Source: a virus
Lineage: Duplodnaviria > Heunggongvirae > Uroviricota > Caudoviricetes
Virus record (IMG/VR): IMGVR_UViG_3300025853_000050
Reading direction: 5' to 3' (one strand)
Length of the DNA stretch: 64,000 bases
Numbering within the stretch: position 1 is the first letter of the stretch; every line of letters begins with the position of its first letter. The notes under the pieces are model-generated. The model worked only from the letters and a program-made list of their open reading frames with translations, searched no databases and was not told the origin of the DNA. Position numbers and translations under genes: made by a program. Below, piece after piece: positions 37,624 to 49,099 of the stretch.

Positions 37624-37650
37624 AAAAGGGGCTGAAAGTAAACCCCTTTT
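37624..37650. terminator. stem-loop that also carries a minus-strand early promoter -35 box (PeSL-type)
   Basis: aaaaggggctgaaagtaaacccctttt; reverse complement reads GGGGTTTACTTTCAGCCCC followed by TATATAAT and the ATAAATTGAAATAAGG leader. Confidence 0.5.
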
Positions 37651-37665
37651 TATCGTTTTATTTTT

Positions 37666-37739
37666 TGGATGCGGAAGTAGGATTTGCACCTACGATCTTC
37701 TGCTTATGAGACAGAAATGTTACTACTACACCATTCCGC
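37666..37739 (-). tRNA. tRNA-Met/fMet/Ile2 (anticodon CAT)
   Basis: Cloverleaf drawn by hand; anticodon loop CTCATAA; CCA encoded. Confidence 0.6.
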
Positions 37740-37748
37740 TTTAAAACT

Positions 37749-37852
37749 ATCTTAAGAGATACACTGGTAAGATTTGCACTTACAATCGTTATCGTCTCGC
37801 ATTTTACTGCAACGGCGTTACTAGTTAGCCCACAGTGTATCTTTTAAGATAG
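37749..37852 (-). other. tRNA-like element enclosed by a 20-bp inverted repeat (possible pseudo-tRNA)
   Basis: ctatcttaagagatacactg at 37749 pairs with cagtgtatcttttaagatag at 37833; the interior has a T-arm-like GTAAGTGCAAATCTTAC. Confidence 0.25.
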
Positions 37853-37865
37853 TTTTGCCTAGCCT

Positions 37866-38175
37866 GAGATTATAGCATAAGATGGAAGTCTTTTGTAGCA
37901 TTATCGTAAGCCTTGCGAGCCACGTTCTCTACGTATCCACTGCATTGTGTGGAACACTAATACAGTATCTTCCAACGCTGCCTTTTTATACAGGTGGCAT
38001 TTCCTGTGTCATACGTCACTACTCGTCTTTCAATCTTCCGCCTGCCTTGCGAGCAGTTCAACTCCGCTAAGAGTTTACGTTTTCTTTCCAAACAAACACA
38101 TCCGCCTTGCGAGCTTCAATGCACCATATTCCCTTACGAGTATGGTATTAAGCGTCTTTAATGACGTACCGGAGT
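37866..38175 (-). ncRNA. structured non-coding stretch inside the tRNA operon (candidate stable RNA, cf. T4 RNA C/D)
   Basis: No ORF; three copies of GCCTTGCGAGC; lies between tRNA genes. Confidence 0.25.
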
Positions 38176-38189
38176 AGACTTTGCTTTTT

Positions 38190-38262
38190 AAACAAATGCA
38201 GGATTTGAACCCACTACCTAAAGATTATGCGTCTTTTGCTCTACCAAATGAGCTAATTTGCG
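38190..38262 (-). tRNA. tRNA-like, anticodon CAT with atypical G33 (possible pseudogene)
   Basis: Good D-arm GCTC-ATTTGGTA-GAGC; T-loop TTCAAAT; anticodon loop CGCATAA. Confidence 0.35.
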
Positions 38263-38289
38263 AACCTACTGTGATGTGCCACTCCAGTT

Positions 38290-38745
38290 GCTTCATATCC
38301 TTTTGGGATACAAAATACAACACATCACCTGTCTTTCTCCTTGCGGGATACTAAACGATACTTCAAGTTTCCAGGTCCTACCCTTTCAACTCTTGTAATG
38401 CTACTTTGCCTTTCCACGCTAATGGTCAAACTCAGTAACTACTCATTGAGTGTAAGATTCGGTAGTTTGGTTAATCGTAGCTTCACCACCACAGTCAATT
38501 AGACCTCACCGATTGGCTCCGGTCACATCCTTTCGGACTACAATTCTACCTTGCTCCACTATTGCCATTCTACTGACAACGAGTTGCTTTCGGCTATCAA
38601 CCGAGTCAACTCCACTCTGAGCTTGTATAGAAGGACCATTGCTGGCGGCAGTTTATAGGAAACCTGCCTTTGGGACTGTTACCAGTCTTACCCTATTCCC
38701 ATGACCCGAAGATCATGGGACAAGCGAGCTATACCTCGCAATTTA
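38290..38745 (-). ncRNA. structured non-coding stretch (several hairpins, UUCG-type loops) inside the tRNA operon
   Basis: Hairpins cccatgacccgaagatcatggg, ggcagtttataggaaacctgcc and gtcacatcctttcggac; no plausible ORF. Confidence 0.25.
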
Positions 38746-38749
38746 TTTA

Positions 38750-38825
38750 TGGTGCTGTTAGTAGGAATCGAACCCACAACCTGCTGATTACAAAACAGCT
38801 GCTCTTCCAATTGAGCTATAACAGC
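38750..38825 (-). tRNA. tRNA-Thr (TGT)
   Basis: GCTGTTA acceptor, D GCTC-AATTGGAA-GAGC, anticodon loop TTTGTAA, T-arm GTGGG-TTCGATT-CCTAC, CCA encoded. Confidence 0.7.
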
Positions 38826-38839
38826 GAATTATTCGTTTT

Positions 38840-38914
38840 GCTGGATAGGTTGGACTCGAACCAACAACCTGCTGATTAACAGTCAGCTGCACTGCCATTG
38901 TGCTACTATCCAGC
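38840..38914 (-). tRNA. tRNA-Asn (GTT)
   Basis: Anticodon arm GCTGA-CTGTTAA-TCAGC; T-arm GTTGG-TTCGAGT-CCAAC; embedded in a 16-bp inverted repeat. Confidence 0.55.
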
Positions 38915-38942
38915 AAAACGAACAAAATTCTTATTAAAAAAA

Positions 38943-39018
38943 TGGCGAAGGTGCCAGGACTCGAACCCGAACTTTCAGTTTTGGAGACTGACGTGCTAGC
39001 CATTAACACTACACCAAC
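38943..39018 (-). tRNA. tRNA-Trp (CCA), imperfect acceptor stem
   Basis: Anticodon arm TCAGT-CTCCAAA-ACTGA; two T-T mismatches in the acceptor stem. Confidence 0.45.
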
Positions 39019-39026
39019 ATATTTTT

Positions 39027-39101
39027 TGGGGGCAGCGGTAGGATTTGAACCTACGATCTCCAACTTATGAGGATGGCGAGATAACCACTTCTCCACGCTG
39101 C
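39027..39101 (-). tRNA. tRNA-Met/fMet/Ile2 (CAT)
   Basis: Anticodon loop CTCATAA; T-arm GTAGG-TTCAAAT-CCTAC; CCA encoded. Confidence 0.55.
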
Positions 39102-39206
39102 GTCAACTTTATTTATATTGACAAATCATTTCAAGTTATATGCATTTTTCTCTTTCGTATTTTGGTAGGCGACCTGGGTTACGATCTGTCGCTTTTAATT
39201 GTTTTG

Positions 39207-39297
39207 TAGTCCCTATGGGATTCGAACCCATATCGCTCTCTAATCTGGAGACGGTGCCGCTTATAAGACGGGTGTTTTACCATTAAACTAAGGGACT
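39207..39297 (-). tRNA. type-II-like tRNA (long variable arm), anticodon unresolved (loop CTTATAA)
   Basis: Acceptor AGTCCCT/AGGGACT; D GTTT-AATGGTA-AAAC; T-arm ATGGG-TTCGAAT-CCCAT; flanked by a 17-bp inverted repeat. Confidence 0.35.
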
Positions 39298-39435
39298 ACA
39301 AAACAATCAAATTAACTTCTTTATATTTTCCCAATCTAAATTATGTTTATCCAAAACAACTTTTTTACCACACAATTCACATACGCAATGTTTATACGTA
39401 GCCTTTCCCATCTCAATCCTTCCGCCCATTATTTT

Positions 39436-39508
39436 TGGATGATTCGGGAGGATTCGAACCTCCGACAACTGAGTCAAAGTCAGCTATGATACCACTTCAC
39501 CACGAATC
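39436..39508 (-). tRNA. tRNA-Gln (TTG)
   Basis: Anticodon arm GCTGA-CTTTGAC-TCAGT; T-arm GGAGG-TTCGAAT-CCTCC. Confidence 0.55.
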
Positions 39509-39514
39509 AAAAAT

Positions 39515-39590
39515 TGGTAGACCCTGTGAGATTCGAACTCACGGCCTTCCGATTAAAAGTCAGATGCTCTTCCAACTGAGCTAAGGGTCC
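39515..39590 (-). tRNA. tRNA-Lys (TTT)
   Basis: D GCTC-AGTTGGAA-GAGC; anticodon loop CTTTTAA; T-arm GTGAG-TTCGAAT-CTCAC; CCA encoded. Confidence 0.65.
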
Positions 39591-39595
39591 ATACT

Positions 39596-39669
39596 TGGTT
39601 GCCCTACGAGGTAACGATCCTCGGTCTTTCGATTATCAGTCGAATGCTTTCCCATTAAGCTATAGGGCA
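39596..39669 (-). tRNA. tRNA-Ile (GAT), unusual T-loop ATCGTTA
   Basis: Anticodon arm TTCGA-CTGATAA-TCGAA; D GCTT-AATGGGAA-AAGC; CCA encoded. Confidence 0.55.
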
Positions 39670-39794
39670 ATAATAATTTGCTAGGCGATCCCGTCCACTC
39701 ATCCCTAACAATCTCCCGCATCCTTCACTCTAACCGAGTATCTAACTTGCGAGCTTACCTTGCTAATTTCCTTTTTTATCAACTTATAGATATA

Positions 39795-39832
39795 TTATAG
39801 TATATCTAGCATAAAAAGTAAAGAAGTTTTTA
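39795..39832 (-). promoter_or_regulatory. early promoter driving the first tRNA block
   Basis: Reverse complement reads CTTCTTTACTTTTTATGCTAGATATACTATAATAT. Confidence 0.45.
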
Positions 39833-40066
39833 TTGGCTAACACCAATAAAATTTGCTTTAATTAAATTTGACGAAATACTGTTAAGTTGGTTAACAACTG
39901 AAATCAAACGATCATAACTTTCTTTAGAAATTTCCTCATCATTTTCAATTTCTCCAAAGGCCATAATTGAAGTTTTTTTAATATCCGATGCTAAATTATC
40001 AATCATTTCCCAATAAATTAATTCCTTATCACTAGGCTCTGCAATTTTATTCCAATTAATTTCCAT
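39830..40066 (-). CDS. hypothetical acidic protein
   Basis: 78-aa ORF. Confidence 0.3.
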   Translation of the reverse strand: MEINWNKIAEPSDKELIYWEMIDNLASDIKKTSIMAFGEIENDEEISKESYDRLISVVNQLNSISSNLIKANFIGVSQ

Positions 40067-40093
40067 TTAAACTTCCTATTCAATTTATACATA

Positions 40094-40126
40094 TATTATA
40101 GTTTATTTCAAACTGAAAGTAAAGAG
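40094..40126 (-). promoter_or_regulatory. T4-type early promoter with conserved leader
   Basis: AAAAAACTCTTTACTTTCAGTTTGAAATAAACTATAATATATGTATAAATTGAATAGGAAG. Confidence 0.45.
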
Positions 40127-40137
40127 TTTTTTATGAT

Positions 40138-40353
40138 TTAGACAAATTTAATATGCTTTCGACCTTTATCATCAATATACACTGATGCAAAATAATCACT
40201 ATCGTTTTGATCCTTTTTCTCCAATTTCTCAATCAAAGATTTCTTTTTAATTCTGGCAGTGACCGTTTCTGCCGCATTCAGGTGAACTTCTCCTCGTACA
40301 AAATCCGCTGTCTTAATTTCTTCAATCAGTTCCTTTGCTGTATATCTTTTCAT
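40138..40353 (-). CDS. hypothetical protein
   Basis: 71-aa ORF. Confidence 0.3.
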   Translation of the reverse strand: MKRYTAKELIEEIKTADFVRGEVHLNAAETVTARIKKKSLIEKLEKKDQNDSDYFASVYIDDKGRKHIKFV

Positions 40354-40657
40354 TTGTCTTTCCTACTACTAATTCCGTATTGGAATAAAACCAGCATTCA
40401 TGTTTCTCAATGCTACTTAGTTCTTGAAATGTTCGGTAATTCATACCAGTTTCTGAATTCCATTCAAAACAAGATATCCAATCTCCCCAATACTCTTCTT
40501 TGTCAGTAATATACTTATCTATAACAAAATGGCATTGCACATAACCAGGAGCTGTTGTTTGTGAACCAACCCCTTTAATAAAGTCGTCTTGTCCGCCTTT
40601 ATACAGAGCCTCAAATATTTCTTCGTTTTCAAACTTATGTATAATCATTAGTACCAC
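40322..40657 (-). CDS. hypothetical protein
   Basis: 111-aa ORF. Confidence 0.3.
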   Translation of the reverse strand: MVLMIIHKFENEEIFEALYKGGQDDFIKGVGSQTTAPGYVQCHFVIDKYITDKEEYWGDWISCFEWNSETGMNYRTFQELSSIEKHECWFYSNTELVVGKTNEKIYSKGTD

Positions 40658-40986
40658 AAACTCGTATAATATTTACCAAACAATTCCAATCCTTCAAAGA
40701 ATTTATCGGCCTTTTCGCTTTTTTCCCAATACATACCACAATTCTCATGCTTGGCATAAATTTCAAAGGAATAAATCATCTTGTCCAGAATATCTGTCAT
40801 CATACCATCCTCGGTTTCTTTATCTAGGACATATTTATATTTGATATCTTTGAATTGTTTCAAAGCAGGAAGAATGATAATGGCCAAAGTTGAATCCAAA
40901 GAATAGAAATCTTCTCCATCAAATTCTACCTTAACTTTTTTACGGGAATTGTTATCTTTTTTATATTTACCAATATTTACTTTCAT
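40648..40986 (-). CDS. hypothetical protein
   Basis: 112-aa ORF. Confidence 0.3.
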   Translation of the reverse strand: MKVNIGKYKKDNNSRKKVKVEFDGEDFYSLDSTLAIIILPALKQFKDIKYKYVLDKETEDGMMTDILDKMIYSFEIYAKHENCGMYWEKSEKADKFFEGLELFGKYYTSLWY

Positions 40987-41004
40987 TGTATCATCCTATA
41001 AAAT

Positions 41005-41081
41005 TGGTGGCCCCTGTAGGATTCGAACCCACGACCCTGGAGGTAGAAACTCCATGCTCTAATCCGCTGAGCTAAGGGGCC
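41005..41081 (-). tRNA. tRNA-Arg (TCT)
   Basis: D GCTC-AGCGGATTA-GAGC; anticodon arm TGGAG-TTTCTAC-CTCCA; CCA encoded. Confidence 0.65.
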
Positions 41082-41091
41082 ATTAAACTTT

Positions 41092-41418
41092 TTACACAGA
41101 AATATTTTTTAGATTTTGCACGACTTCGCCCACAGTAAGGTCTTCGCGATCTTCTACAAGGGCATAGTACGTCTTATCAAAAATATCGGGTTTACAAGGA
41201 TAAAATTCGCCTTGTACCCCGCAAATAATATAATCCCCAAGACTAGCATTCATCGTCCCTTCAAGGGTCTGAATACTCAAACTTTTTGGGGAGTAATTTT
41301 TAGATACACGCCAAGAATTACTGGACCCAAAGAAATCAATAATTTCTTGATAGTTGTCACCATTCCACTGAACCGCAGTTACTTCAACTGGTTTTTTACG
41401 ATATCGTTTTACGCTCAT
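41092..41418 (-). CDS. conserved hypothetical phage protein
   Basis: 108-aa ORF. Confidence 0.35.
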   Translation of the reverse strand: MSVKRYRKKPVEVTAVQWNGDNYQEIIDFFGSSNSWRVSKNYSPKSLSIQTLEGTMNASLGDYIICGVQGEFYPCKPDIFDKTYYALVEDREDLTVGEVVQNLKNISV

Positions 41419-41933
41419 GGATACACCCTTTTTAATTCACCATTAATATTGTATACCGAAATTTTATCAAATCCTTCGTTTATTGTTGGCATCTGAAAAC
41501 TACGTTCCATCTTAAACAAGACTTCTTGGGGAATTTTCTTATACACCCGTTTTGTAATTCGACGGTTCCAAACATCTAAATCATCAATGGTGATAAAACA
41601 TGCGTTAAACGTCCATTCATCATCACTAGATGATAAAATCTTTGAAGTAATTTTCCCACGCTTTTTGCGCGAAAGATTGGTTTGATCCCAAATAATGTTG
41701 TTTGACGTATAATTAAATGCATCATCCAAACGGTCATCACAAAAATTCGTGGCTTCTTTAATCGTATCGGCAAAGATATCGTTATACGTTGAACCCAGTT
41801 TTTGCACTTTATCTTCAATATACCGGTCCGTGCTGTACACAAATGCATTCGGATCCATAAGTCGAAATTTCTCAACCAAAGTAGACTTACCTGAATAAGG
41901 CATCCCAACCATAATAGTACAAACACGCTTCAT
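41415..41933 (-). CDS. P-loop polynucleotide-kinase-like protein (T4 Pnk kinase-domain-like, GMPYSGKST)
   Basis: Start taken at MKRVCTIMVGMPYSGKSTLVEKF; the ORF-track N-terminal extension runs through the upstream tRNA and is rejected. Confidence 0.5.
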   Translation of the reverse strand: MKRVCTIMVGMPYSGKSTLVEKFRLMDPNAFVYSTDRYIEDKVQKLGSTYNDIFADTIKEATNFCDDRLDDAFNYTSNNIIWDQTNLSRKKRGKITSKILSSSDDEWTFNACFITIDDLDVWNRRITKRVYKKIPQEVLFKMERSFQMPTINEGFDKISVYNINGELKRVYP

Positions 41934-41951
41934 AATATATCTCCAAAGAAT

Positions 41952-42029
41952 TGGTGCGAATAGTGGGATTCGAACCCACACTGTACGAATTTTAAGTTCG
42001 TTGTCTCCTACCGGTTGGACTATATTCGC
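41952..42029 (-). tRNA. tRNA with Leu-type anticodon TAA on a short-variable-arm (class I) scaffold
   Basis: Acceptor GCGAATA/TATTCGC; anticodon arm ACGAA-CTTAAAA-TTCGT; T-arm GTGGG-TTCGAAT-CCCAC; CCA encoded. Confidence 0.5.
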
Positions 42030-42042
42030 TTTATTATTTACA

Positions 42043-42078
42043 TAGTATAGCTTATTTAAGCTTAGAAGTAAAGACTTT
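42043..42078 (-). promoter_or_regulatory. early promoter for the second tRNA/kinase block
   Basis: Reverse complement reads GTCTTTACTTCTAAGCTTAAATAAGCTATACT. Confidence 0.4.
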
Positions 42079-42257
42079 TTCCGTCTCAATACAAACAATT
42101 ATTATATCATATTCCGGAAGAAATTTTCTTCTTTCTTTTAATTTAGATTCTTCTTCCATGCATTCTTCCATAGAAGGCATTTCAAAAGACATAAATGTAA
42201 TATCCATTGGATCAGGATTAGATTTTAATGCAAAAGATAATACTAATTCTATTAACA

Positions 42258-42503
42258 TCAAAAACTTTCTTTATCCAATATATCAGATAAATCGACACAA
42301 TTGGTTGCATAAAAGAATTTATCGTCAGGTTCTGTTATAAAAGTCTCTGACTGTAATGCTTTACAAAGTGCCATATTCGGAACTGGTATCGTCAGAATAT
42401 TTTGCTCCAAAGGTTTAGTTTCTCCGGGCAACACAATAGCGACTAAAAGATAAATTAATTTCATTATAGAACTCCTTGAATTGTGGGCTAACCATTGACC
42501 CAC
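42258..42503 (-). CDS. small secreted protein (signal peptide at internal Met MKLIYLLVAIVLPG)
   Basis: 81-aa ORF. Confidence 0.3.
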   Translation of the reverse strand: MGQWLAHNSRSSIMKLIYLLVAIVLPGETKPLEQNILTIPVPNMALCKALQSETFITEPDDKFFYATNCVDLSDILDKESF

Positions 42504-42512
42504 GCGGACGTA

Positions 42513-42764
42513 TTAAGTCGTCACACTGATAAAATCTGATCTTTCAGGAGTTTTATTAAGATCTTCCCATTCTTGACGGGTTGTTCCGTAAAGAATAAAT
42601 TCTTGAGCTTCGACAGAAATATCAGGAAATGCATCCTCCAGTGTAATTTCCCCATTTTCAAAAGCATGATATTTTATATCAAAATCTAACTGAGAATAGT
42701 TCTTAAACTCCAGAGTTCTTACTCTTTCGGTCAACATCGATTTATTTCTGAATCTGGCTGACAT
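42513..42764 (-). CDS. hypothetical protein
   Basis: 83-aa ORF. Confidence 0.3.
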   Translation of the reverse strand: MSARFRNKSMLTERVRTLEFKNYSQLDFDIKYHAFENGEITLEDAFPDISVEAQEFILYGTTRQEWEDLNKTPERSDFISVTT

Positions 42765-42973
42765 TATTCTTCATCATCTCCATGACCAGGATTGATTACG
42801 AATAACATAAACAACTCAATCGTCAAAACCAAAGGCCAAAATACGAAATACAAACCATTTGGCCTTTCCCCTTCATAATCAGGTGGAAATTGCAACAAAT
42901 TAGATATTGCAACCCCACCTATGTAATAAACCCAAAGTAGAGTACAAGCAAGTATAGTCTCTAGAAGAGTCAT
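42764..42973 (-). CDS. small membrane protein
   Basis: 69 aa, two hydrophobic segments. Confidence 0.3.
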   Translation of the reverse strand: MTLLETILACTLLWVYYIGGVAISNLLQFPPDYEGERPNGLYFVFWPLVLTIELFMLFVINPGHGDDEE

Positions 42974-43092
42974 ACGTTTCCTTCCTAGATGTTTATGTCA
43001 TACTTCTATTTATACTTTTGGTTTACTTTGATTTTCCAATTTAATTTCCAAACTTTGACCATCCAAACAACATATTTTTTGATTTTGTGTTT

Positions 43093-44409
43093 TTATAGCA
43101 TGGCATTTTGTCGAACCTCATCAAAAGTGGTTTCACGAACAAGTTTTCCATTATAGAATACACGCTTAAGTCTTGGATCATCAAATCGACCTTTTTTAGA
43201 CTTCTTACCAGGATCGGTAATAGGGTCTTTGAATACGTCTCGCCATACGCCATCAACCTTTGCAGCAGAACACTTCATGGCAAACTTCTGATCATCTCTT
43301 TGAGATGTACTTAAAAGGTTTGCACCCATACCAAATGCCACATTATCGGCAGAATACCTATTGACGAATAGTGTCTGTAGAATTTTATCAATAGCCTCAT
43401 AATCAACACCATCACCCTGAATTACACGGACGTTATTTAACACACGATATCCCTTTGAGTTTTTTGTACTCCCATATTTCTTATCTAAAAGTTTAACGGT
43501 ATCACGGACAACTTTCCAAGGAATACCAGAGTCGGGGCGAACAACAACTGTCGCACCTGAATCAATAACTTCTTGCCTTAGTTTTTCGCCCCAGAGATTT
43601 TCCACGGCATTATAGATATCATAGCTATCCGATACCACTGCCACTAACGCTCCAGGTTTACCAAACTGTTTTACCATATTGCGATATGCTTCGACTTCAT
43701 TCTCTTTACCCCACGAAGTGATAGTAGAGTGTTCAGCCGCCGGAATAGAAAATCCAGCCATATCTGCGCCATAGTATTTTCTGGCACCAAGAGTGGCAAC
43801 AATGGTATCTGTACCCATGAAGTTAATCAAGTGTGACATACCACCAAGCATTGCGCTTTCATTTGACGACACTCCTCTTGCACCAAAGTCATGGAGTTTA
43901 AACACCAATCCTTCACGGCTATCAGAAGTCTTATCCATATAACTTGCGATCAGCTTCTTAATTTCTCGCGAGTTGGTAGCAACTGTAGTTGGATACCAGA
44001 TAGCACGAAGAAGTGCGGTCTCAAGATAAGTAGTCAACCAAAAGCAATTTGGGTCTGTGTTTTCAATAGTGAGCATCACATCATGAATAGCGACTGGCAT
44101 TCCTTCGGGAACAGCCTTGATTTCCACTGGCAAATATCCATCATGTTCATTTAGGATATACTCCCAACCAGAACGGTTGAAAGGTTCTCCATGTGCAGTC
44201 CAAATTGCTTCTGCTTCGTCAATATCTTCTTGTGTAATTGGATCTGACAAGTATTCTTTAATAAAAGCCTGTAGGCCAAAGAATACTAGCTCATTATATT
44301 TTCCATCACGAGATTCAATATAAGAATATACCGCCTCGGTTTTTGGTGGATATTGTACAAACATTGATGCTTTATAGCTATCAGTATTCAATAAAATTGA
44401 TTGTTTCAT
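43093..44409 (-). CDS. nadV: nicotinamide phosphoribosyltransferase (NAMPT) NadV
   Basis: N-terminus MKQSILLNTDSYKASMFVQYPP is the characteristic NAMPT opening; 438 aa. Confidence 0.8.
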   Translation of the reverse strand: MKQSILLNTDSYKASMFVQYPPKTEAVYSYIESRDGKYNELVFFGLQAFIKEYLSDPITQEDIDEAEAIWTAHGEPFNRSGWEYILNEHDGYLPVEIKAVPEGMPVAIHDVMLTIENTDPNCFWLTTYLETALLRAIWYPTTVATNSREIKKLIASYMDKTSDSREGLVFKLHDFGARGVSSNESAMLGGMSHLINFMGTDTIVATLGARKYYGADMAGFSIPAAEHSTITSWGKENEVEAYRNMVKQFGKPGALVAVVSDSYDIYNAVENLWGEKLRQEVIDSGATVVVRPDSGIPWKVVRDTVKLLDKKYGSTKNSKGYRVLNNVRVIQGDGVDYEAIDKILQTLFVNRYSADNVAFGMGANLLSTSQRDDQKFAMKCSAAKVDGVWRDVFKDPITDPGKKSKKGRFDDPRLKRVFYNGKLVRETTFDEVRQNAML

Positions 44410-44459
44410 TTAGAACTCCTCTAAAGTTTATGTTACCTAACTCTTTGTTAGGATTTTTA

Positions 44460-45527
44460 TTAAAGACCAACAAAGTAGTCAATAATTCCGTAGTGATCCT
44501 CAAACATCACCTTACTATCCAGTTCACTCAATTTAAACCATTTGGCTTCAATTGCATCATCTGAACCCTTGACCTTTGGTAATTCTTCCATAGGTGTTAA
44601 TTCAAAGTAAAAAGCATTAGTGATAGTGCGTCCACGTGATGAACGATTTGGGTCATCAAACGTATGTTGTCCCTTGATAGAACCTTTCAATACTGGTGCA
44701 GGAACTTTCAAACGAGTTTCTTCTCGCAGTTCTCGAATACATCCGTCAAGTAGAGTTTCTGTTTGATTTAAAAATCCGCCAGGCAAAGCCCATTGACCAA
44801 TTCCTGGTGCATGACCTCGGCGTACAAGTAGAATGTGTCCAGATTGAATTACTACCGCATCAGTGGTAACGAATGTAGGAGGATAAGGTGCATATTTCCA
44901 TGAATCCTTATACTCTTGGATCATTTCATATTCTTGCTTTAAAAGTGCCCAATAGTCTTTATTGATAATATTCTCAATCACTTTTTGTGCAGGATTTGGC
45001 ATATCACGTTTGTAATATTTTTCATTGGGGAAGGATAGCAAGTCTTCACGAATGTTAGTTGCATTGATGCCTTTGTAATCAGAAACTGCAACCGAATCCA
45101 TTCCTGGGAACATTTTCAAATAGTATGAAGTATTATCTTTTGAATGACCGATCAACCCGACCTTCTTAATCCATTTAGGATTGTCAAGGTTATTTAGATT
45201 ACGATTACAATTAGAAAGGTTAGTATCATCATCAATAATCAATTGAATTTCTGATAGCCATTTACTGTCATTATATGGATAATCATCCACACCATCAATA
45301 CATAAACGACCATCTTCGTAAGCATCATCATTGGATGCACGAATCATCGCATGTCGTTCTCCGTATGTAAATGGATTTCGTATTGTTCTTGGTCCACCAC
45401 ATGAACCAATGATAACTAATACTTCGTCCGCTCTCTTTAGAGCTTCATCAATAACGGCCTGATGTCCATTATGAAATGGTTGAAAACGACCGATAAAGAC
45501 CAACAGGTCAAATTCTTTTTTACTCAT
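44460..45527 (-). CDS. natV: bifunctional NMN adenylyltransferase / Nudix hydrolase NatV
   Basis: FIGRFQPFHNGH (HxGH nucleotidyltransferase motif) plus a C-terminal Nudix box GGFLNQTETLLDGCIRELREETRL. Confidence 0.75.
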   Translation of the reverse strand: MSKKEFDLLVFIGRFQPFHNGHQAVIDEALKRADEVLVIIGSCGGPRTIRNPFTYGERHAMIRASNDDAYEDGRLCIDGVDDYPYNDSKWLSEIQLIIDDDTNLSNCNRNLNNLDNPKWIKKVGLIGHSKDNTSYYLKMFPGMDSVAVSDYKGINATNIREDLLSFPNEKYYKRDMPNPAQKVIENIINKDYWALLKQEYEMIQEYKDSWKYAPYPPTFVTTDAVVIQSGHILLVRRGHAPGIGQWALPGGFLNQTETLLDGCIRELREETRLKVPAPVLKGSIKGQHTFDDPNRSSRGRTITNAFYFELTPMEELPKVKGSDDAIEAKWFKLSELDSKVMFEDHYGIIDYFVGL

Positions 45528-45586
45528 CTTACTAAAACTCCTTTAGTATTTTACTTATACAGACACTCTATGTATCTGATTTTATT

Positions 45587-45663
45587 TGGTGAACCTGGAA
45601 GGATTCGAACCCTCGACCTTGTGGTTCGTAGCCACACGCTCTGTCCAACTGAGCTACAGGTCC
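45587..45663 (-). tRNA. tRNA-Arg (ACG)
   Basis: D GCTC-AGTTGGACA-GAGC; anticodon arm TGTGG-CTACGAA-CCACA; CCA encoded. Confidence 0.65.
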
Positions 45664-45669
45664 ATAATT

Positions 45670-45740
45670 TGGTGACTGTAGATAGAATCGAACTATCCCT
45701 GGTGGCTTATGAAACCACTGTCAAGACCACTTGTACAGTC
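45670..45740 (-). tRNA. tRNA, anticodon CAT (loop TTCATAA)
   Basis: T-arm GATAG-TTCGATT-CTATC; acceptor GACTGTA/TACAGTC; CCA encoded. Confidence 0.45.
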
Positions 45741-45741
45741 A

Positions 45742-45818
45742 TGGTGCCCATGGTGGGATTCGAACCCACAACCTCTTGAATCTAAATCAAGCATCTCTTC
45801 CAATTGGACTACACAGGC
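45742..45818 (-). tRNA. tRNA with Leu-type anticodon TAG on a class I scaffold
   Basis: Anticodon arm CTTGA-TTTAGAT-TCAAG; T-arm GTGGG-TTCGAAT-CCCAC; CCA encoded. Confidence 0.45.
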
Positions 45819-45823
45819 AATTA

Positions 45824-46018
45824 TTAATTCTCCAATGCCTTTAGAGCTTGAGCCGCTTTTAATGCATCATCAAACGTATCAAACGATGGAGCGTTTTGAA
45901 TTTGGTCTTCGTCAAATGATCCATCTTCGTAACACATAACAACGTAATAAAGTTCCCCAACTCGTCTTACAGAATAAGACGTTTCGATACTGGTTCCTTT
46001 ATACGAACCGAAAAACAT
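45824..46018 (-). CDS. hypothetical protein
   Basis: 64-aa ORF behind an early promoter. Confidence 0.3.
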   Translation of the reverse strand: MFFGSYKGTSIETSYSVRRVGELYYVVMCYEDGSFDEDQIQNAPSFDTFDDALKAAQALKALEN

Positions 46019-46044
46019 TTATCACTCCTTATCAATTTATACTC

Positions 46045-46078
46045 ATATTATAGTTTATATCAAAAGCGAAGTCAAGCG
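46045..46078 (-). promoter_or_regulatory. early promoter with conserved leader
   Basis: AAAACGCTTGACTTCGCTTTTGATATAAACTATAATATGAGTATAAATTGATAAGGAG. Confidence 0.45.
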
Positions 46079-46088
46079 TTTTTTATGT

Positions 46089-46163
46089 TGGAGGAACACG
46101 TAGGAATCAAACCTACCTAATGTGGATTTGCAATCCACCGCCTACTCAGTCAGCCTGTGCTCC
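46089..46163 (-). tRNA. tRNA-Cys (GCA)
   Basis: Anticodon arm GTGGA-TTGCAAA-TCCAC; T-arm GTAGG-TTTGATT-CCTAC; CCA encoded. Confidence 0.55.
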
Positions 46164-46251
46164 AAAACATAATATAGAAAATAGCCGATGTTAAAATTAA
46201 AACAAGAATTATATCTCCAGTTTCCATTATCTATTTTCCTATTTTAGAAGT

Positions 46252-46345
46252 TGGCGGATGATTGAGGTGTCGATCCCCAATCGGGCTTCTAACCCGACCA
46301 CACTGTTTTCAAGACAGGTCCAGAGGCCGCTCTGGTTAATCATCC
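46252..46345 (-). tRNA. tRNA-Ser (TGA), type II
   Basis: Anticodon loop CTTGAAA; long variable arm hairpin GTCGGGTTAGAAGCCCGAT; 3' end AATCATCCGCCA. Confidence 0.5.
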
Positions 46346-46350
46346 AATTT

Positions 46351-46385
46351 TGGCGGAGCCGCTGGGAGTCGAACCCAGTGAACCT
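46351..46385 (-). other. tRNA 3'-half fragment (T-arm + acceptor 3' strand + CCA, no 5' half)
   Basis: AGGTTCA-CTGGG-TTCGACT-CCCAG-CGGCTCC-G-CCA; no complementary 5' strand nearby. Confidence 0.35.
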
Positions 46386-46465
46386 TGGCGGTGAGTGAGG
46401 GATTCGAACCCTCGATAGAACTTTTAATCCTATGACGGTTTAGCAAACCACTCATCCAACCCACC
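46386..46465 (-). tRNA. tRNA-Ser(GCT)-like with variable-arm hairpin but no recognisable D-arm (likely degenerate)
   Basis: Anticodon loop TTGCTAA; variable arm CATAGGATTAAAAGTTCTATCG; 3' end CTCACCGCCA as in bacterial tRNA-Ser(GCU); only 7 nt between acceptor and anticodon stem. Confidence 0.3.
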
Positions 46466-47038
46466 GATTTCTTTCTTTCGAAGCACTATCAGATTTTCGG
46501 GAAAATGTTCCCATTTAGCCTTATCTAAATCTGTTTCATATCCTTTGACTTCAATATAAGACTTTAATTCTTTTACATAGAAATCTGGTTGATACGTAGA
46601 TTTAGTTCCATCTGGTTTAGTGTACGGAAAACGTTTTTTATTTCTTTCCCAGTTTAATTGCATTTTATCAGCAAATTCACAAAATGCCAATTCCCAACTA
46701 CCATCTACCTTTATCTTTCCGGCAATAGGGGACTCATAATCATATTTTGGACATCTTCCAGCGATACACTCCCATCCAGTAGCGTATAATGCTTTTTTGC
46801 TCTCAGACATCTTTCTTTTGGTTTCTGCTGTGTGTTTCTTACCTCTAAATGTTCCAGGTTTACCCTTATTCCAAGCAGTTTGTACACCCACTTTTCCAGT
46901 ATTCCAAGGAACATACCCTTTTTTATTACCGCCACAAATTTTTGAATTTGGGTTATTCCTACAACCAATCTCATGTTTTTTATTGGCACCAGGATTAGTT
47001 GTTTCCCTGCCGCAGAATTGACAAATAAATAGTTTCAT
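46430..47038 (-). CDS. homing-endonuclease-like protein (Zn-ribbon CQFCGRE..HEIGCR, NUMOD3-like GKKHTAETKRKMS, C-terminal PD-(D/E)xK-like core QPDFYV..IEVKG)
   Basis: Start at MKLFICQF. Embedded in the tRNA cluster, the same setting as T4 segB. Confidence 0.4.
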   Translation of the reverse strand: MKLFICQFCGRETTNPGANKKHEIGCRNNPNSKICGGNKKGYVPWNTGKVGVQTAWNKGKPGTFRGKKHTAETKRKMSESKKALYATGWECIAGRCPKYDYESPIAGKIKVDGSWELAFCEFADKMQLNWERNKKRFPYTKPDGTKSTYQPDFYVKELKSYIEVKGYETDLDKAKWEHFPENLIVLRKKEIGGLDEWFAKPS

Positions 47039-47161
47039 GCTGGAAATCTCCCTTTGTATTTCTAGAGTAGGTAGATGCGCCAACATCGTGACCTACATTA
47101 CTATTTATACAAATGAAATTTCAATCCGCTGCATTACCATCCTGCCCCGACTCCTTTAATA

Positions 47162-47237
47162 TGGTGCTAAAAGGAGGAATCGAACCTCCGACACCCTGAT
47201 CTTTAATCAGGTGCTCTACCAACTGAGCTATCTTAGC
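47162..47237 (-). tRNA. tRNA, anticodon unresolved (loop TTAAAGA reads as AAA)
   Basis: Canonical D-arm GCTC-AGTTGGTA-GAGC and T-arm GGAGG-TTCGATT-CCTCC; anticodon stem CCTGA/TCAGG. Confidence 0.45.
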
Positions 47238-47241
47238 AATT

Positions 47242-47316
47242 TGGTACAGGATAGTGGAATCGAACCACTGACATTCTGCGTGTAAAACAGACGCTCTACC
47301 CCTGAGCTAATCCTGC
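47242..47316 (-). tRNA. tRNA-Val (TAC)
   Basis: D GCTC-AGGGGTA-GAGC; anticodon arm TCTGT-TTTACAC-GCAGA; T-arm AGTGG-TTCGATT-CCACT; CCA encoded. Confidence 0.6.
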
Positions 47317-47675
47317 ATTAAATCTTTCATTCTATTCGCTTCATTTTCAAGAGTATTCAAAACAAAATGCTTCAAATATTCTTCCACAATAGGTCCAGTA
47401 TCTATACCAGGATATGGGTTATGAGGAATGATTGTATCATACTCAAAAGTTACCATATCATCGGCCTGACCTTCGACCTCAATAACTTCTAGGTTTTTAA
47501 CGCCAAAAATAAGACCGGCATATTCACCGGTATGAATCTCGAACAATTGATAACCATCGGTTTCCAATAGACTATCTGGATGATGTTCAGATAAAAAATC
47601 GTTAAATTCTACTTTGTAGATACTTTCTTTGTAGAAGTCATAATCAATTCCAATTTTATATTTACCACTGTTCAT
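47307..47675 (-). CDS. hypothetical acidic protein (start at MNSGKYK)
   Basis: The ORF-track N-terminus overlaps tRNA-His and is rejected. Confidence 0.3.
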   Translation of the reverse strand: MNSGKYKIGIDYDFYKESIYKVEFNDFLSEHHPDSLLETDGYQLFEIHTGEYAGLIFGVKNLEVIEVEGQADDMVTFEYDTIIPHNPYPGIDTGPIVEEYLKHFVLNTLENEANRMKDLMQD

Positions 47676-47690
47676 ATCATAACTTTCATT

Positions 47691-47767
47691 TGGGGTGACC
47701 GACGGGGCTCGAACCCGCGACGTCCAGTACCACAAACTGGCGCTCTACCAACTGAGCTACGGCCAAC
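47691..47767 (-). tRNA. tRNA-His (GTG) with G-1:C73
   Basis: Anticodon arm CCAGT-TTGTGGT-ACTGG; D GCTC-AGTTGGTA-GAGC; extra 5' G pairs with discriminator C. Confidence 0.6.
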
Positions 47768-47773
47768 ATAAAA

Positions 47774-47849
47774 TGGCGCTCGTGATGGGTTTCGATCCCA
47801 CTGCCTTCGGTTCGACAGACCGACGCTCTCCCGATTGAGCTACACGAGC
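47774..47849 (-). tRNA. tRNA-Asp (GTC), T-loop ATCGAAA
   Basis: Acceptor GCTCGTG/CACGAGC; anticodon arm TCGGT-CTGTCGA-ACCGA; CCA encoded. Confidence 0.6.
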
Positions 47850-47943
47850 ATTTATTTAGGGTTAGCCCTTTCCACCTTGATTGAACTTATCTAGAAAGAA
47901 CAATCTTCCTCGATTAAGAGGCTAAGTGTGCTAACCCGTGCCT

Positions 47944-48018
47944 TGGAGCAGCTGGAGGGAATCGAACCCTCATCCTCTGGTTGGAAGCCAGACATAATAG
48001 CCATTATACTACAACTGC
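47944..48018 (-). tRNA. tRNA-Gly (TCC)
   Basis: Anticodon arm TCTGG-CTTCCAA-CCAGA; T-arm GAGGG-TTCGATT-CCCTC; CCA encoded. Confidence 0.6.
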
Positions 48019-48031
48019 AATTTATTATACT

Positions 48032-48109
48032 TGGTCTGGGCGGGAGGATTCGAACCTCCGACCACTCGCTTCCAAGGCGAGCATTCTGACCAGACTGAAC
48101 TACGCCCAG
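48032..48109 (-). tRNA. tRNA-Pro (TGG)
   Basis: Acceptor CTGGGCG/CGCCCAG; anticodon loop CTTGGAA; T-arm GGAGG-TTCGAAT-CCTCC; CCA encoded. Confidence 0.6.
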
Positions 48110-48309
48110 ACCAAGTATAATTTGATTAGACCCCGTTACATTCACCCGATGGCGATAACACCTCACGAGACCATAAGGCCCCGTCTAACCATGCCCTAAT
48201 ATTACCCTCTCATTAGAGGACCGAACTATAACATGGTGACTAGACCATGCCAGGGAGTTCGGTCGTTAGATACCAGCAACCGGTTGCCATATTATGGTAT
48301 CCCTTTGTT

Positions 48310-48383
48310 TGGTGGAGCTGGAGGGAATCGAACCCTCTGACGTCGATCTTGCAAGGATCAACCGCTACCCATAGACCAGCCCC
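48310..48383 (-). tRNA. tRNA-Ala (TGC)
   Basis: Anticodon arm TGATC-CTTGCAA-GATCG; T-arm GAGGG-TTCGATT-CCCTC; CCA encoded. Confidence 0.55.
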
Positions 48384-48412
48384 AAATTCCGACTAACGAC
48401 GTTACTGGCGCA

Positions 48413-48595
48413 TTATACTTCCGGTCTTTTATTCAAGACCTTTTTATCGATATAACAATAGTCATACCCATAACATTCTTCTTGCTTATTGGCAACTTCT
48501 AATTCTTTATATGCCAAATCTTTATCATCAAATACTGCAATTACATGAGTGCTTTCGTATTCATGACCACCTAATAGGATATAGATAGTATGCAT
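48413..48595 (-). CDS. hypothetical protein
   Basis: 60-aa ORF. Confidence 0.25.
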   Translation of the reverse strand: MHTIYILLGGHEYESTHVIAVFDDKDLAYKELEVANKQEECYGYDYCYIDKKVLNKRPEV

Positions 48596-48613
48596 ATTAG
48601 CCTCCTAGAATTA

Positions 48614-48699
48614 TGGTGGGTGTGGAAGGATTCGAACCTACTCACCATAAAGGGGTGGGTTTACAGCCCACCGCGACTCTCCAACTTCACCGCACACCC
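48614..48699 (-). tRNA. tRNA-Tyr (GTA), type II
   Basis: Anticodon arm GTGGG-CTGTAAA-CCCAC; long variable arm; acceptor GGGTGTG/CACACCC; CCA encoded. Confidence 0.6.
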
Positions 48700-48717
48700 T
48701 TATTTAATTTTCATTAT

Positions 48718-48752
48718 TGTAGTTTATTTAGGTTAAAAAGTAAAGAAGTTTT
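48718..48752 (-). promoter_or_regulatory. early promoter for the third tRNA block
   Basis: Reverse complement reads AACTTCTTTACTTTTTAACCTAAATAAACTACAATAATG. Confidence 0.4.
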
Positions 48753-49099
48753 TATGAATTTCATTAATTTTTCGGGGTAACATCAACTTCGCATGTACAT
48801 CCTACCATATCAAAGGTTAGAAAAAAGACCTGTCCAATATGACTTTGAGTTTCAACTAATTTGTAATTAGTGGCCTTCTCAGAAGTAATACTCATTACAT
48901 TAAAAATGTTTTGAATTAATTCTTGATTTACACACATCATCCGTATTTCTTCAGTTCTTTTTGTAGAGTTTCAATTTCAGTTTGAGTTTTCAGAATATTT
49001 GATTCGTCATGAAAAGCAGTATATTCTTTTAGTTGTTTGTTTGCTTCTTTGAGCATCTGCTTTAACATTAGTACATTGCTTTTGTTCATGTTTATTCCT

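Follow-up and report, generated by a model that had tools for sequence, protein, structure and literature searches.

The 64,000-nucleotide stretch of DNA analysed here (the window) belongs to a tailed virus of the Caudoviricetes (IMG/VR record IMGVR_UViG_3300025853_000050), has a G+C content of 37% and encodes a homologue of a myovirus-type baseplate hub/tail lysozyme. Our subject is the cluster of transfer RNA (tRNA) genes between positions 37624 and 48760. ARAGORN predicted 27 genes in the window, 23 of which were minus-strand tRNAs at 37666-48699, and the Rfam tRNA model RF00005 supported 21 of these 23 at its gathering score. As for the other two, tRNA-Tyr reached 40.2 bits in an Rfam E-value search and not the gathering score, and tRNA-Ala (48310-48383) gave a sub-threshold tmRNA-like match alone in that search. 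Relaxed ARAGORN settings and the Rfam E-value search added three genes, tRNA-Ser(UGA), the tRNA(CAU) at 45670-45740 and a tRNA-Ser(GCU)-like gene. In total, 26 tRNA genes were found within 11 kb, every one on the minus strand, which makes the locus a tRNA array (at least 20 genes, densely spaced on one strand); it is phage-borne and is associated with a homing endonuclease, and the CCA end is gene-encoded in 23 of 26 cases. We conclude that this is very probably the array of a large AT-rich tailed phage, horizontally mobile and composed of about 26 tRNAs together with a GOLLD RNA, NAD+ salvage genes, a kinase and an endonuclease, and that it most likely serves A/U-rich codons. The tRNA genes and the terminator-like hairpin at the end of the array are as follows.

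48614..48699, minus strand: tRNA-Tyr(GUA), class II, CCA encoded (ARAGORN; Rfam 40.2 bits)
48310..48383, minus strand: tRNA-Ala(UGC), G3:U70, A73, degenerate D arm (ARAGORN, sequence)
48032..48109, minus strand: tRNA-Pro(UGG) (ARAGORN, Rfam)
47944..48018, minus strand: tRNA-Gly(UCC) (ARAGORN, Rfam)
47774..47849, minus strand: tRNA-Asp(GUC), T-loop AUCGAAA with A54 (ARAGORN)
47691..47767, minus strand: tRNA-His(GUG), G-1 opposite C73, U1/C72 mismatch (ARAGORN, sequence)
47242..47316, minus strand: tRNA-Val(UAC) (ARAGORN, Rfam)
47162..47237, minus strand: tRNA-Phe body with anticodon AAA, loop UUAAAGA (ARAGORN; Rfam 70.2 bits)
46386..46465, minus strand: Ser(GCU)-like tRNA, long variable arm, without a proper D arm (Rfam 36.3 bits)
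46252..46345, minus strand: (8/4) Sec-like tRNA-Ser(UGA), 94 nt, T-loop AUCGACA, G73, CCA (relaxed ARAGORN; Rfam tRNA-Sec)
46089..46163, minus strand: tRNA-Cys(GCA), U73, aberrant D arm (ARAGORN, Rfam)
45742..45818, minus strand: class I tRNA-Leu(UAG), 77 nt, 5-nt variable loop, 11-nt D loop, A73, CCA (ARAGORN; Rfam 60 bits)
45670..45740, minus strand: tRNA(CAU), compact D arm CAAG-UGGU-CUUG, A73, CCA (Rfam 32.5 bits; fold)
45587..45663, minus strand: tRNA-Arg(ACG) (ARAGORN, Rfam)
41952..42029, minus strand: class I tRNA-Leu(UAA), 78 nt, variable loop ACAGU, Leu-type D arm, A73, CCA (ARAGORN; Rfam 64.4 bits)
41005..41081, minus strand: tRNA-Arg(UCU) (ARAGORN, Rfam)
39596..39669, minus strand: tRNA-Ile(GAU), T-loop AUCGUUA, A54 with U58 (ARAGORN)
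39515..39590, minus strand: tRNA-Lys(UUU) (ARAGORN, Rfam)
39436..39509, minus strand: tRNA-Gln(UUG) (ARAGORN, Rfam)
39206..39297, minus strand: five-helix tRNA(UAU), 92 nt, A73, CCA not encoded (ARAGORN; Rfam 61.8 bits; minimum-free-energy (MFE) fold)
39027..39102, minus strand: tRNA(CAU) (ARAGORN, Rfam)
38943..39018, minus strand: tRNA-Trp(CCA), two U/U mismatches in the acceptor stem (ARAGORN)
38840..38912, minus strand: tRNA-Asn(GUU), CCA not encoded (ARAGORN)
38750..38825, minus strand: tRNA-Thr(UGU) (ARAGORN, Rfam)
38190..38262, minus strand: tRNA(CAU) within the GOLLD RNA
37666..37740, minus strand: tRNA(CAU), T-loop UGCAAAU (ARAGORN, Rfam)
37624..37650, minus strand: terminator-like hairpin (GGGG...CCCC, then UUUU) that closes the block (sequence)

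A preliminary description of this DNA had proposed a cluster of about 25 tRNA genes with several atypical members. ARAGORN assigned the same anticodons throughout and upheld the UAA (41952) and UAG (45742) genes as Leu anticodons on class I scaffolds with short variable arms, both with 5-nt variable loops. Equally correct were the loop TTAAAGA of the tRNA at 47162, which gives the anticodon AAA, the G-1 of tRNA-His, the encoded CCA of many genes, and the T-loops beginning with A, which were exact: ATCGTTA in tRNA-Ile(GAU), ATCGAAA in tRNA-Asp and ATCGACA in tRNA-Ser(UGA). The interruption of the cluster by nadV/natV, a polynucleotide kinase-like kinase and a homing-endonuclease-like gene was confirmed by Pfam and partly by PHROGs. 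The core reading thus stood; the GOLLD RNA, the (8/4) scaffold of tRNA-Ser, the tRNA-Ser(GCU) remnants and the two-hairpin tRNA(UAU) had gone unrecognised, so that the earlier interpretation is partly supported: largely right, yet incomplete.

The function best supported by the sequence is codon supplementation, since the phage prefers A/U-ending codons and the anticodon set is almost wholly of the U34/G34 type. In the 59 open reading frames (ORFs) of the window, to which the codon-usage comparison was confined, UUU made up 72% of Phe codons, AAA 74% of Lys, CAA 80% of Gln and GAA 82% of Glu codons; AUA accounted for 20% of Ile codons, and UUA and CUA for 28% and 15% of Leu codons. The array tRNAs would supply decoders for these favoured codons and would make the phage less dependent on the tRNA pool of the host. 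Three points weigh against our reading of the array. The tRNA calls of the window included no tRNA-Glu, although GAA is among the commonest window codons (792 uses); such a gene could sit outside the window. The D arms or anticodon stems of tRNA-Ala, tRNA-Cys and the gene at 46386-46465 are weak, and these tRNAs could be non-functional. Finally, the type I tRNA-Leu(CAA) of Streptomyces coelicolor is charged by its own leucyl-tRNA synthetase (LeuRS) and not by that of Escherichia coli (PMC6614811), which implies that the charging of short tRNA-Leu depends on the host.

A different purpose, counter-defence, would have the array replace host tRNAs that anticodon nucleases cleave or deplete, with odd scaffolds that evade these nucleases and a kinase that takes part in repair. 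Phage T4 Pnk and Rnl repair tRNA-Lys, and T5 tRNAs reportedly escape tRNA-targeting toxins. In the window, many members deviate in the D arm, T-loop or variable region, a kinase with weak polynucleotide kinase similarity lies inside the array, and nearly the full set of amino acids is covered rather than rare codons alone. However, Pfam and PHROGs searches revealed neither an RNA ligase nor a phosphatase domain nor any known anti-nuclease gene beside the kinase, and the bias of the anticodons to the preferred A/U-ending codons is predicted directly by supplementation. We regard counter-defence as unlikely to be the main purpose, though it is compatible with codon supplementation.

To place the atypical members, they were compared with about 430 loci (numbered L001 onwards), assembled from 80 NatV-anchored viral contigs, three scans of viral contigs by pattern, a scan of bacterial genomes and a metagenome scan that was anchored on the tRNA-Phe anticodon arm. 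The flagged oddities are truly non-canonical, as had been claimed, but most of them are not peculiar to this phage. Judged by predicted structure, most non-canonical members fall into classes that are found in company with one another in the mobile arrays of phages and of some bacteria; the recurring classes are tRNA-Leu with a 5-nt variable arm, (8/4) tRNA-Ser, 4-bp D stems capped by UGGU, A54 T-loops and the tandem-hairpin tRNA(UAU). For example, the T-loop AUCGUUA, with swapped A54 and U58, recurred elsewhere (e.g. in L051, L030 and L018). As exceptions, tRNA-Phe(AAA) and the tRNA-Ser(GCU) fragments look like the results of recent point mutation and endonuclease damage, respectively.

The most unusual of these classes is represented by the 92-nt tRNA(UAU) at 39206-39297, which the preliminary description had omitted from its gene list. 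It reads AGUCCCU-UA-GUUU-AAUGGUA-AAAC-A-CCCGU-CUUAUAA-GCGGC-ACCG-UCUC-CAGAUUA-GAGA-GCGAU-AUGGG-UUCGAAU-CCCAU-AGGGACU-A. Its first hairpin (arm A) is a canonical anticodon arm with the loop CUUAUAA, containing U33, the anticodon UAU and A37. The second (arm B) is a 4-bp hairpin, UCUC-CAGAUUA-GAGA, followed by five nucleotides (GCGAU) before the T arm. The acceptor branch is of the 7/5 type with A73.

The CAGAUUA loop was found on different, compensating stems in two NatV-anchored loci. When only the UAU loop and a common T-loop were fixed, the scan returned 110 distinct sequences, 52 of them with CAGAUUA, and nearly all other bona fide tRNAs among them had variant loops that keep GAU at positions 3-5 (UAGAUUU, UAGAUUG, CAGAUAA, CAGAUGG, CCGAUUA, CUGAUUA and others). 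When only arm B and the T-loop were fixed, 114 distinct sequences were obtained, with UAU in arm A of 113. Among loci anchored independently of tRNA(UAU), the window included, arm B was present in nine of ten phage UAU tRNAs. The family comprises at least 194 distinct sequences, GAU being kept in 194 of about 197 bona fide members; A73 occurs in 193/194, and the arm-A loop YYUAURN is present in all members by design of the search. Arm B, with a 7-nt loop of the form NNGAUNN, has a stem of 4 bp in 139 of the 194 sequences and of 5 bp in 45. Counted from the loop, C-G forms the first pair in 184 and the third in 183 of 194, the former being partly forced by the search patterns, and pairs 2 and 4 are variable and compensated. 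The distance from arm B to the T stem is 5-6 nt in 189/194.

RNAalifold, applied to 42 representatives that were less than 86% similar by sequence-matching ratio, predicted the five helices unaided and found double compensatory changes at the two variable arm-B pairs in 15 and 25 sequences. In view of this covariation, an intron-containing or misfolded tRNA(UAU) gene was rejected. Since the bodies of the family have at least three D-arm architectures (canonical; 4 bp with UGGU; GCAC-NNNN-GUGC), the conservation of GAU is not simple inheritance. A kissing interaction between the UAU and GAU loops was considered and rejected, as a hand check revealed neither consistent complementarity nor covariation between the loops. 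Among other tRNA families, the search for an anticodon-like loop in a long variable arm yielded only scattered GNRA-type extra arms.

Synechococcus phages S-SRM01 and S-SKS1 and Lactobacillus phage LpeD contain members of the family that had escaped annotation, and a variant in Lactobacillus phage 3-521 had been annotated as tRNA-Ile. In this variant (L301 3000-3090) and in L204, GAU is replaced by GAC, the anticodon triplet of valine, which may hint at valine identity or may be noise. The family also occurs in 33 bacterial genome contigs, mostly of Pyrinomonadaceae and Blastocatellia (Acidobacteria), where chromosomal arrays of up to 27 tRNAs (in the 8 kb fetched) contain the two-hairpin tRNA(UAU) together with 77-78-nt tRNA-Leu. 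In L371-L397, on contigs of up to 607 kb, 77-78-nt tRNA-Leu exist for four anticodons and tRNA(UAU) adjoins tRNA-Ile(GAU). Members from a Pseudomonadota metagenome-assembled genome and Solimonas sp. (L374, L395, L400) have an extra hairpin, CCGUCCC-AUUG-GGGACGG, which separates the anticodon arm from the GAU arm and brings the helices to six. By these sequence criteria, the two-hairpin tRNA(UAU) is a widespread, mostly phage-borne family. We found no description of it in the literature searched, which excludes two studies of the tRNA-Ile(UAU) found in lactic acid bacteria that possibly describe it (Tomikawa 2018, Uesugi 2022).

Published candidates are the acidobacterial allo-tRNA(UAU), which are abundant, may form five-stem junctions and failed to act as serine suppressors in E. 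coli (PMC5389517). These tRNAs are characterized by an 8/4 or 9/3 branch and G73 or U73 (potential Ser identity), in contrast to the 7/5 branch and A73 of the window tRNA(UAU); compared by description only, the allo-tRNA(UAU) of Mukai et al. may overlap with the two-hairpin family. An Ile-charged tRNA would also be inactive in their serine-specific reporter.

What might the second hairpin do? Arm A is spaced canonically to the D arm and arm B to the T arm, so that the molecule looks like a tRNA with tandem anticodon arms, and the 5-6 nt between arm B and the T arm resemble a class I variable loop. Arm B itself resembles the anticodon arm of bacterial tRNA-Ile(GAU), with a 7-nt loop, GAU at the anticodon position and C-G at the equivalents of 31-39 and 29-41. 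The latter pair was C-G in 94% of arm B sequences, compared with 62% of real tRNA-Ile(GAU) and 13% of all tRNAs from the same loci. As arm B usually has A33 and U37, it should not decode. In addition, the window tRNA(UAU) has C4:G69, U12:A23 and, in arm A, C29:G41, as does the neighbouring tRNA-Ile(GAU). All three pairs belong to the Ile identity set reported by Nureki et al. 1994, in which C29:G41 is an identity element for the E. coli isoleucyl-tRNA synthetase (IleRS).

These features suggest, as a tentative proposal, that arm B copies the tRNA-Ile(GAU) anticodon arm so that the host IleRS charges a tRNA with a UAU anticodon. Arm A would decode AUA, and arm B would supply the G34-A35-U36 determinant to the anticodon-binding domain of an ordinary host IleRS. 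As the host enzyme is beyond the reach of the phage, this would be a solution on the tRNA side, and AUA would become readable in any host without TilS or a specialised IleRS. The difficulty is an old one: isoleucylation of a UAU-tRNA by a synthetase that reads G34 or lysidine, and E. coli IleRS is 360-fold less efficient on tRNA-Ile whose anticodon is UAU than on the lysidine (LAU) form (PMC3575796). Mycoplasma mobile solved it on the enzyme side: its tRNA-Ile(UAU) shares the anticodon with the window tRNA and belongs to class I, AUA is decoded without lysidine, and charging is achieved by a changed IleRS (Arg865) (PMC3575796). Alternatively, tRNA(UAU) could be leucylated, as was shown in vitro for the nematode V-arm (nev) tRNA(UAU) (PMC3333845, PMC4300185). 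The nev-tRNA(UAU) also combines UAU with a long extra arm, but its arms are of the Leu type. Unlike both the M. mobile and the nematode tRNAs, the family described here has an extra hairpin that resembles the tRNA-Ile(GAU) anticodon arm and occurs mainly in phages. Arm B could also be the part that a modification enzyme or a protein of the phage takes hold of, or have a structural role. If the hairpin is a transplanted identity element, it would represent a new principle of tRNA recognition, it would make the problem of UAU-tRNA isoleucylation approachable, and it could be useful for the engineering of orthogonal or anticodon-independent tRNAs.

Between tRNA-Gln and tRNA(UAU), a small ORF of about 41 codons with a CxxC motif (MGGRIEMGKATYKHCVCELCGKK...) was observed at 39307-39432 (minus strand). 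In Lactobacillus phages LpeD and 3-521, a gene for an HNH endonuclease adjoins the tRNA homologous to tRNA(UAU), and the small ORF could be an endonuclease remnant.

The short tRNA-Leu genes conform to the type I class, with a Leu anticodon, a 5-nt variable loop, A73 and a Leu-type body. Their D arms are GUC-CAACCGGUAGGA-GAC and GUC-CAAUUGGAAGA-GAU, each with a 3-bp stem and a loop of 10-11 nt that contains a GG motif. The tRNA-Leu genes called by ARAGORN in 368 phage loci comprised 80 different short sequences (73-79 nt) and 72 different long ones. The geometry of the D arm (3-bp stem, 10-11-nt loop) is common to both kinds, and 84% of short and 93% of long sequences have A73. Since short tRNA-Leu recur with a D arm of the long type, they represent a regular phage design and not misfolding or an oddity. 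The Streptomyces type I tRNA-Leu also has a 5-nt variable loop (ACAGC, compared with ACAGU in the window tRNA-Leu(UAA)) and A73; unlike that tRNA with its anticodon CAA, the window tRNAs have UAA and UAG, are phage-borne and belong to a class as frequent in our sample as long-arm tRNA-Leu. Mitochondrial tRNA-Leu, in which a Leu anticodon is likewise combined with a short variable loop, offers a further comparison. Class I tRNA-Leu and (8/4) tRNA-Ser scaffolds are thus already known, and by the sequences surveyed they are much commoner in phages than the literature consulted suggests.

Could the class I tRNAs with Leu anticodons or tRNA(UAU) carry another amino acid and thereby recode UUR, CUN or AUA? 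Precedents are the leucine-charged nematode V-arm tRNAs with UAU (PMC3333845, PMC4300185) and the allo-tRNAs that can act as missense suppressors (PMC5389517), and two members of the two-hairpin family have GAC in the second hairpin. Nevertheless, we consider recoding very improbable. The short tRNA-Leu keep the Leu-type D arm and A73, like the long-arm tRNA-Leu of the same loci; the body of the window tRNA(UAU) is Ile-like by the three pairs named above, and its D arm is not Leu-like. Moreover, UUA, UUG, CUA and AUA are frequent in ordinary phage genes.

The second known scaffold is that of tRNA-Ser(UGA). It scored 42.8 bits with the tRNA-Sec model of Rfam, whose gathering score is 47. Its unconstrained MFE fold (z = -2.5) has an 8-bp acceptor stem (GGAUGAUU/AAUCAUCC), a 4-bp T stem and a D arm with a 6-bp stem and a 4-nt loop, CGGC; the variable arm has 6 bp according to ARAGORN and 9 bp in the MFE fold. 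With the 8 + 4 split, a Sec-like D arm, a long variable arm, G73 and the anticodon UGA, it belongs to the (8/4) tRNA-Ser reported in phage tRNA clusters (Mukai et al. 2017, PMC5389517), with which it shares the acceptor and T stems, the tetraloop D arm, G73 and a Ser anticodon. The companion (8/4) tRNA-His of that study is absent here; the window tRNA-His is of the 7/5 type with G-1:C73.

The neighbouring region contains pieces of a tRNA-Ser(GCU) gene arranged around the endonuclease gene.

47122..47154, minus strand: 5' fragment of tRNA-Ser(GCU), consisting of the acceptor strand, D arm and anticodon stem up to G34 (alignment)
46430..47086, minus strand: free-standing homing-endonuclease-like gene, 218 aa (Pfam NUMOD3; PHROG 15137 'endonuclease', E = 1.7e-15)
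46351..46385, minus strand: 3' fragment with T arm and acceptor strand CGGCTCC-G-CCA, complementary to the 5' fragment at 47154 (sequence)

The 5' fragment is 96-100% identical over 26-27 nt to intact tRNA-Ser(GCU) genes of other phages (L138, L150 and L279). Between the two outer pieces lie the endonuclease ORF and a second Ser(GCU)-like gene (46386-46465), whose 5' end overlaps the end of this ORF; parsed by hand, its anticodon arm reads GTGGT-TTGCTAA-ACCGT, and its MFE fold is not a cloverleaf. A group I intron that splits tRNA-Ser(GCU) was rejected: no intron family matched in Rfam at E <= 5, about 35 nt of non-coding sequence precede the ORF and none follow it, the outer gene lacks the 3' strand of its anticodon stem and its variable arm, the pieces form no single cloverleaf, and there is no pairing of the outer 5' acceptor GGAGUCG with the inner tRNA-like gene at its 3' end. 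We read the pieces as the product of an endonuclease-associated rearrangement of the T4 SegB kind, in which the free-standing homing-type endonuclease would have cut up the neighbouring tRNA-Ser(GCU) gene. SegB of T4 serves as the model of endonucleases whose cuts fall inside tRNA genes (cited in PMC8421152).

A different kind of exception is tRNA-Phe(AAA). Its body is 86-96% identical to those of lake-metagenome tRNA-Phe with the anticodon GAA, from which it differs in the anticodon. G34 is a determinant for the phenylalanyl-tRNA synthetase (PheRS) in E. coli. GAA was present in 34/34 metagenomic tRNAs that share the exact anticodon stem and variable loop of tRNA-Phe(AAA), and in 42/43 phage tRNA-Phe genes of the comparison loci; therefore, A34 is a singleton G34A change. 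No second tRNA-Phe(AAA) was found in these loci, the sole other 'Phe(aaa)' call of ARAGORN (in L273) being dubious and unrelated in sequence. Hence, tRNA-Phe(AAA) is probably a one-off mutation; A34 could stem from an error in sequencing or assembly, from a recent mutation, neutral or harmful, or from a strain-specific adaptation to the 72% usage of UUU. Like the window gene, 29 of 42 phage tRNA-Phe(GAA) have G37 and not the A37 usual in bacteria (L001-L368).

These exceptions raise the question whether the atypical members in general are pseudogenes or degenerating duplicates. In favour of decay, tRNA-Phe(AAA) is unique among 34 stem-sharing tRNAs and 43 phage tRNA-Phe, tRNA-Ser(GCU) is split around the endonuclease, the gene at 46386-46465 lacks a D arm, and allo-tRNA(UAU) variants were inactive as suppressors in E. 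coli (PMC5389517). However, the architectures of class I tRNA-Leu, (8/4) tRNA-Ser and two-hairpin tRNA(UAU) recur in hundreds of divergent loci, changes in their stems are compensatory, and A73 and CCA ends are kept. Such recurrence with compensatory stem changes indicates purifying selection and not decay. As a general explanation decay is refuted by the covariation and is thus improbable; it stands for tRNA-Phe(AAA) and the tRNA-Ser(GCU) pieces alone. Several tRNA shapes that textbooks treat as exceptions (short tRNA-Leu, 8/4 tRNA-Ser, tetraloop D arms) appear to be standard in mobile arrays. Standard tRNA finders and phage annotations thus under-count or mislabel such tRNAs, and host synthetases must tolerate their shapes.

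At its 3' end the array contains a large non-coding RNA and a tRNA-like structure.

37861..~38748, minus strand: GOLLD RNA of about 0.9 kb, with the conserved 3' core at 37861-38328 (RF02032 and fold of the 5' part)
37745..37856, minus strand: tRNA-like cloverleaf on a perfect stem of about 24 bp, directly 3' of GOLLD (relaxed ARAGORN; z = -5.0)

The match to RF02032 at 37861-38328 scored 224.5 bits (gathering score 150) and covered model positions 1-416 of 416. The tRNA(CAU) at 38190-38262 occupies the variable linker of the model, and tRNAs lie on both flanks of GOLLD. The array has four CAT tRNAs, and one of the Met/Ile2(CAT) genes of the preliminary description is this part of the GOLLD RNA. 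The 420 nt upstream of the core, which reach to tRNA-Thr, fold more stably than shuffled sequences (z = -3.8), and 38329-~38748 is probably the variable 5' half of GOLLD, beyond the Rfam model, as the predicted fold suggests. Four lake-metagenome loci (L411, L433, L415 and L430) are about 72-77% identical to this region and contain GOLLD with an embedded tRNA within arrays of about 5-34 tRNAs in the stretch fetched. In L411, from a related lake phage, the anticodon of the embedded tRNA (12027-12099) is UAG (Leu), placed on a class I scaffold of 73 nt; as the embedded tRNA of the window has CAU, the type of embedded tRNA is not fixed. In its full-length match to RF02032, the tRNA in the linker and the flanking tRNAs, the window RNA does not differ in any essential respect from known GOLLD. 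The adjacent cloverleaf at 37745-37856 and the tRNA(CAU) at 37666-37740 have the T-loop UGCAAAU in common, with G55 in place of U55.

The other features of the cluster are promoter-like sites, three protein-coding genes and a structured spacer.

48716..48744, minus strand: promoter-like site P1 (TTTACT-N17-TACAAT), upstream of tRNA-Tyr (motif scan)
48112..48309, minus strand: structured spacer RNA between tRNA-Ala and tRNA-Pro (MFE fold)
46047..46075, minus strand: promoter-like site P2 (TTGACT-N17-TATAAT) (motif scan)
44460..45527, minus strand: natV, NMN adenylyltransferase plus Nudix (Pfam CTP_transf_like and NUDIX)
43093..44409, minus strand: nadV, nicotinamide phosphoribosyltransferase (Pfam NAPRTase, 1.2e-61, and NAMPT_N)
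42044..42072, minus strand: promoter-like site P3 (motif scan)
41415..41933, minus strand: P-loop kinase (AAA_33), weakly polynucleotide kinase-like (Pfam AAA_33, 1.6e-9; PHROG 505 'polynucleotide kinase', 1.6e-9)
40095..40123, minus strand: promoter-like site P4 (motif scan)
39794..39822, minus strand: promoter-like site P5, upstream of the Ile-to-GOLLD block (motif scan)

The motif TT[GT]AC[TA]-N16-18-TA[CT]A[AC]T matched 29 times in the window, with 1.8 matches expected from shuffled sequences, and the phage promoter has the form of an A-rich tract followed by TTTACT-N17-TATAAT. Five promoter-like copies lie inside the cluster (48744, 46075, 42072, 40123 and 39822), and therefore five transcription units are predicted. 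Instead of early promoters for three blocks, as had been claimed, the cluster has five sigma-70-like sites, which may or may not be early. The array would be transcribed from these at least five copies of the phage sigma-70-like promoter, and the polycistronic transcripts would be processed. Elsewhere in the window, nine near-identical promoters (aaaacctcTTTACTTCCATGGCAGCTTAGGGTATAAT) were observed at 22948-27379 (plus strand), spaced 0.3-0.9 kb apart. Most of them precede an ORF of 48-82 aa in a region that has no large gene; by its layout, this region looks like an array of small early genes.

NadV is up to 59% identical to phage NadV, and the identity of NadV and NatV to other phage proteins does not exceed 54-60%. 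When the whole cluster was compared by megablast with 50,697 phage records, no close relative was found, the sole match being 49 nt of tRNA, and the 142-aa ORF between tRNA-His and tRNA-Val had relatives in neither viral contigs nor metagenomes. The spacer at 48112-48309 has an MFE of -66.8 kcal/mol (z = -3.0 vs shuffled), and that at 47850-47943 (minus strand) also folds better than shuffled sequences (z = -3.4). Neither matched an Rfam family; the two structured spacers may be new small RNAs or processing elements.

Outside the array, the ARAGORN 95-nt 'tRNA-Lys(ttt)' at 6588-6682 (plus strand) is probably a false positive, as it lies within an ORF, folds poorly and has no Rfam support. Two further tRNAs are located on the plus strand at 61281-61356 and 62846-62921. 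One of the pair has the anticodon CUA (amber suppressor-like, 'Pyl' in ARAGORN) and a weak anticodon stem. The other has CAU and a body that resembles the two-hairpin tRNA(UAU) family; it may be a tRNA-Ile2. A permuted two-piece tmRNA is encoded at 15813-16182 (minus strand; Rfam tmRNA_permuted 94.7 bits, alpha_tmRNA 86.2 bits), with the tag peptide ANDNFKAFDYALAA according to ARAGORN. Its alphaproteobacterial-type tag may be a hint at the host.

Long tRNA arrays are known from bacteria and phages as dozens of tRNAs on one strand that are horizontally mobile and often accompanied by a homing endonuclease (PMC8421152, PMC5966550, PMC6409571). The array studied here differs from these L-arrays in that it is interrupted by nadV/natV and a kinase and carries GOLLD. 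A close match to the whole package is the horizontally acquired cluster of Mycobacterium mucogenicum (Behra et al. 2019, PMC6582537), in which an HNH endonuclease accompanies tRNA-Ile(TAT) and a tRNA-Leu(TAG) with a short loop; GOLLD RNA is present in some members of the clade, and expression of the tRNA-Ile(TAT) was shown (PMC6582537). In contrast to the window array, however, this cluster is chromosomal and belongs to an actinobacterium. A second hairpin of its tRNA-Ile(TAT) is not described in that paper, and we liken it to tRNA(UAU) by description and not by sequence. We conclude that the array itself is a further example of the mobile phage tRNA arrays that carry GOLLD and a homing endonuclease.

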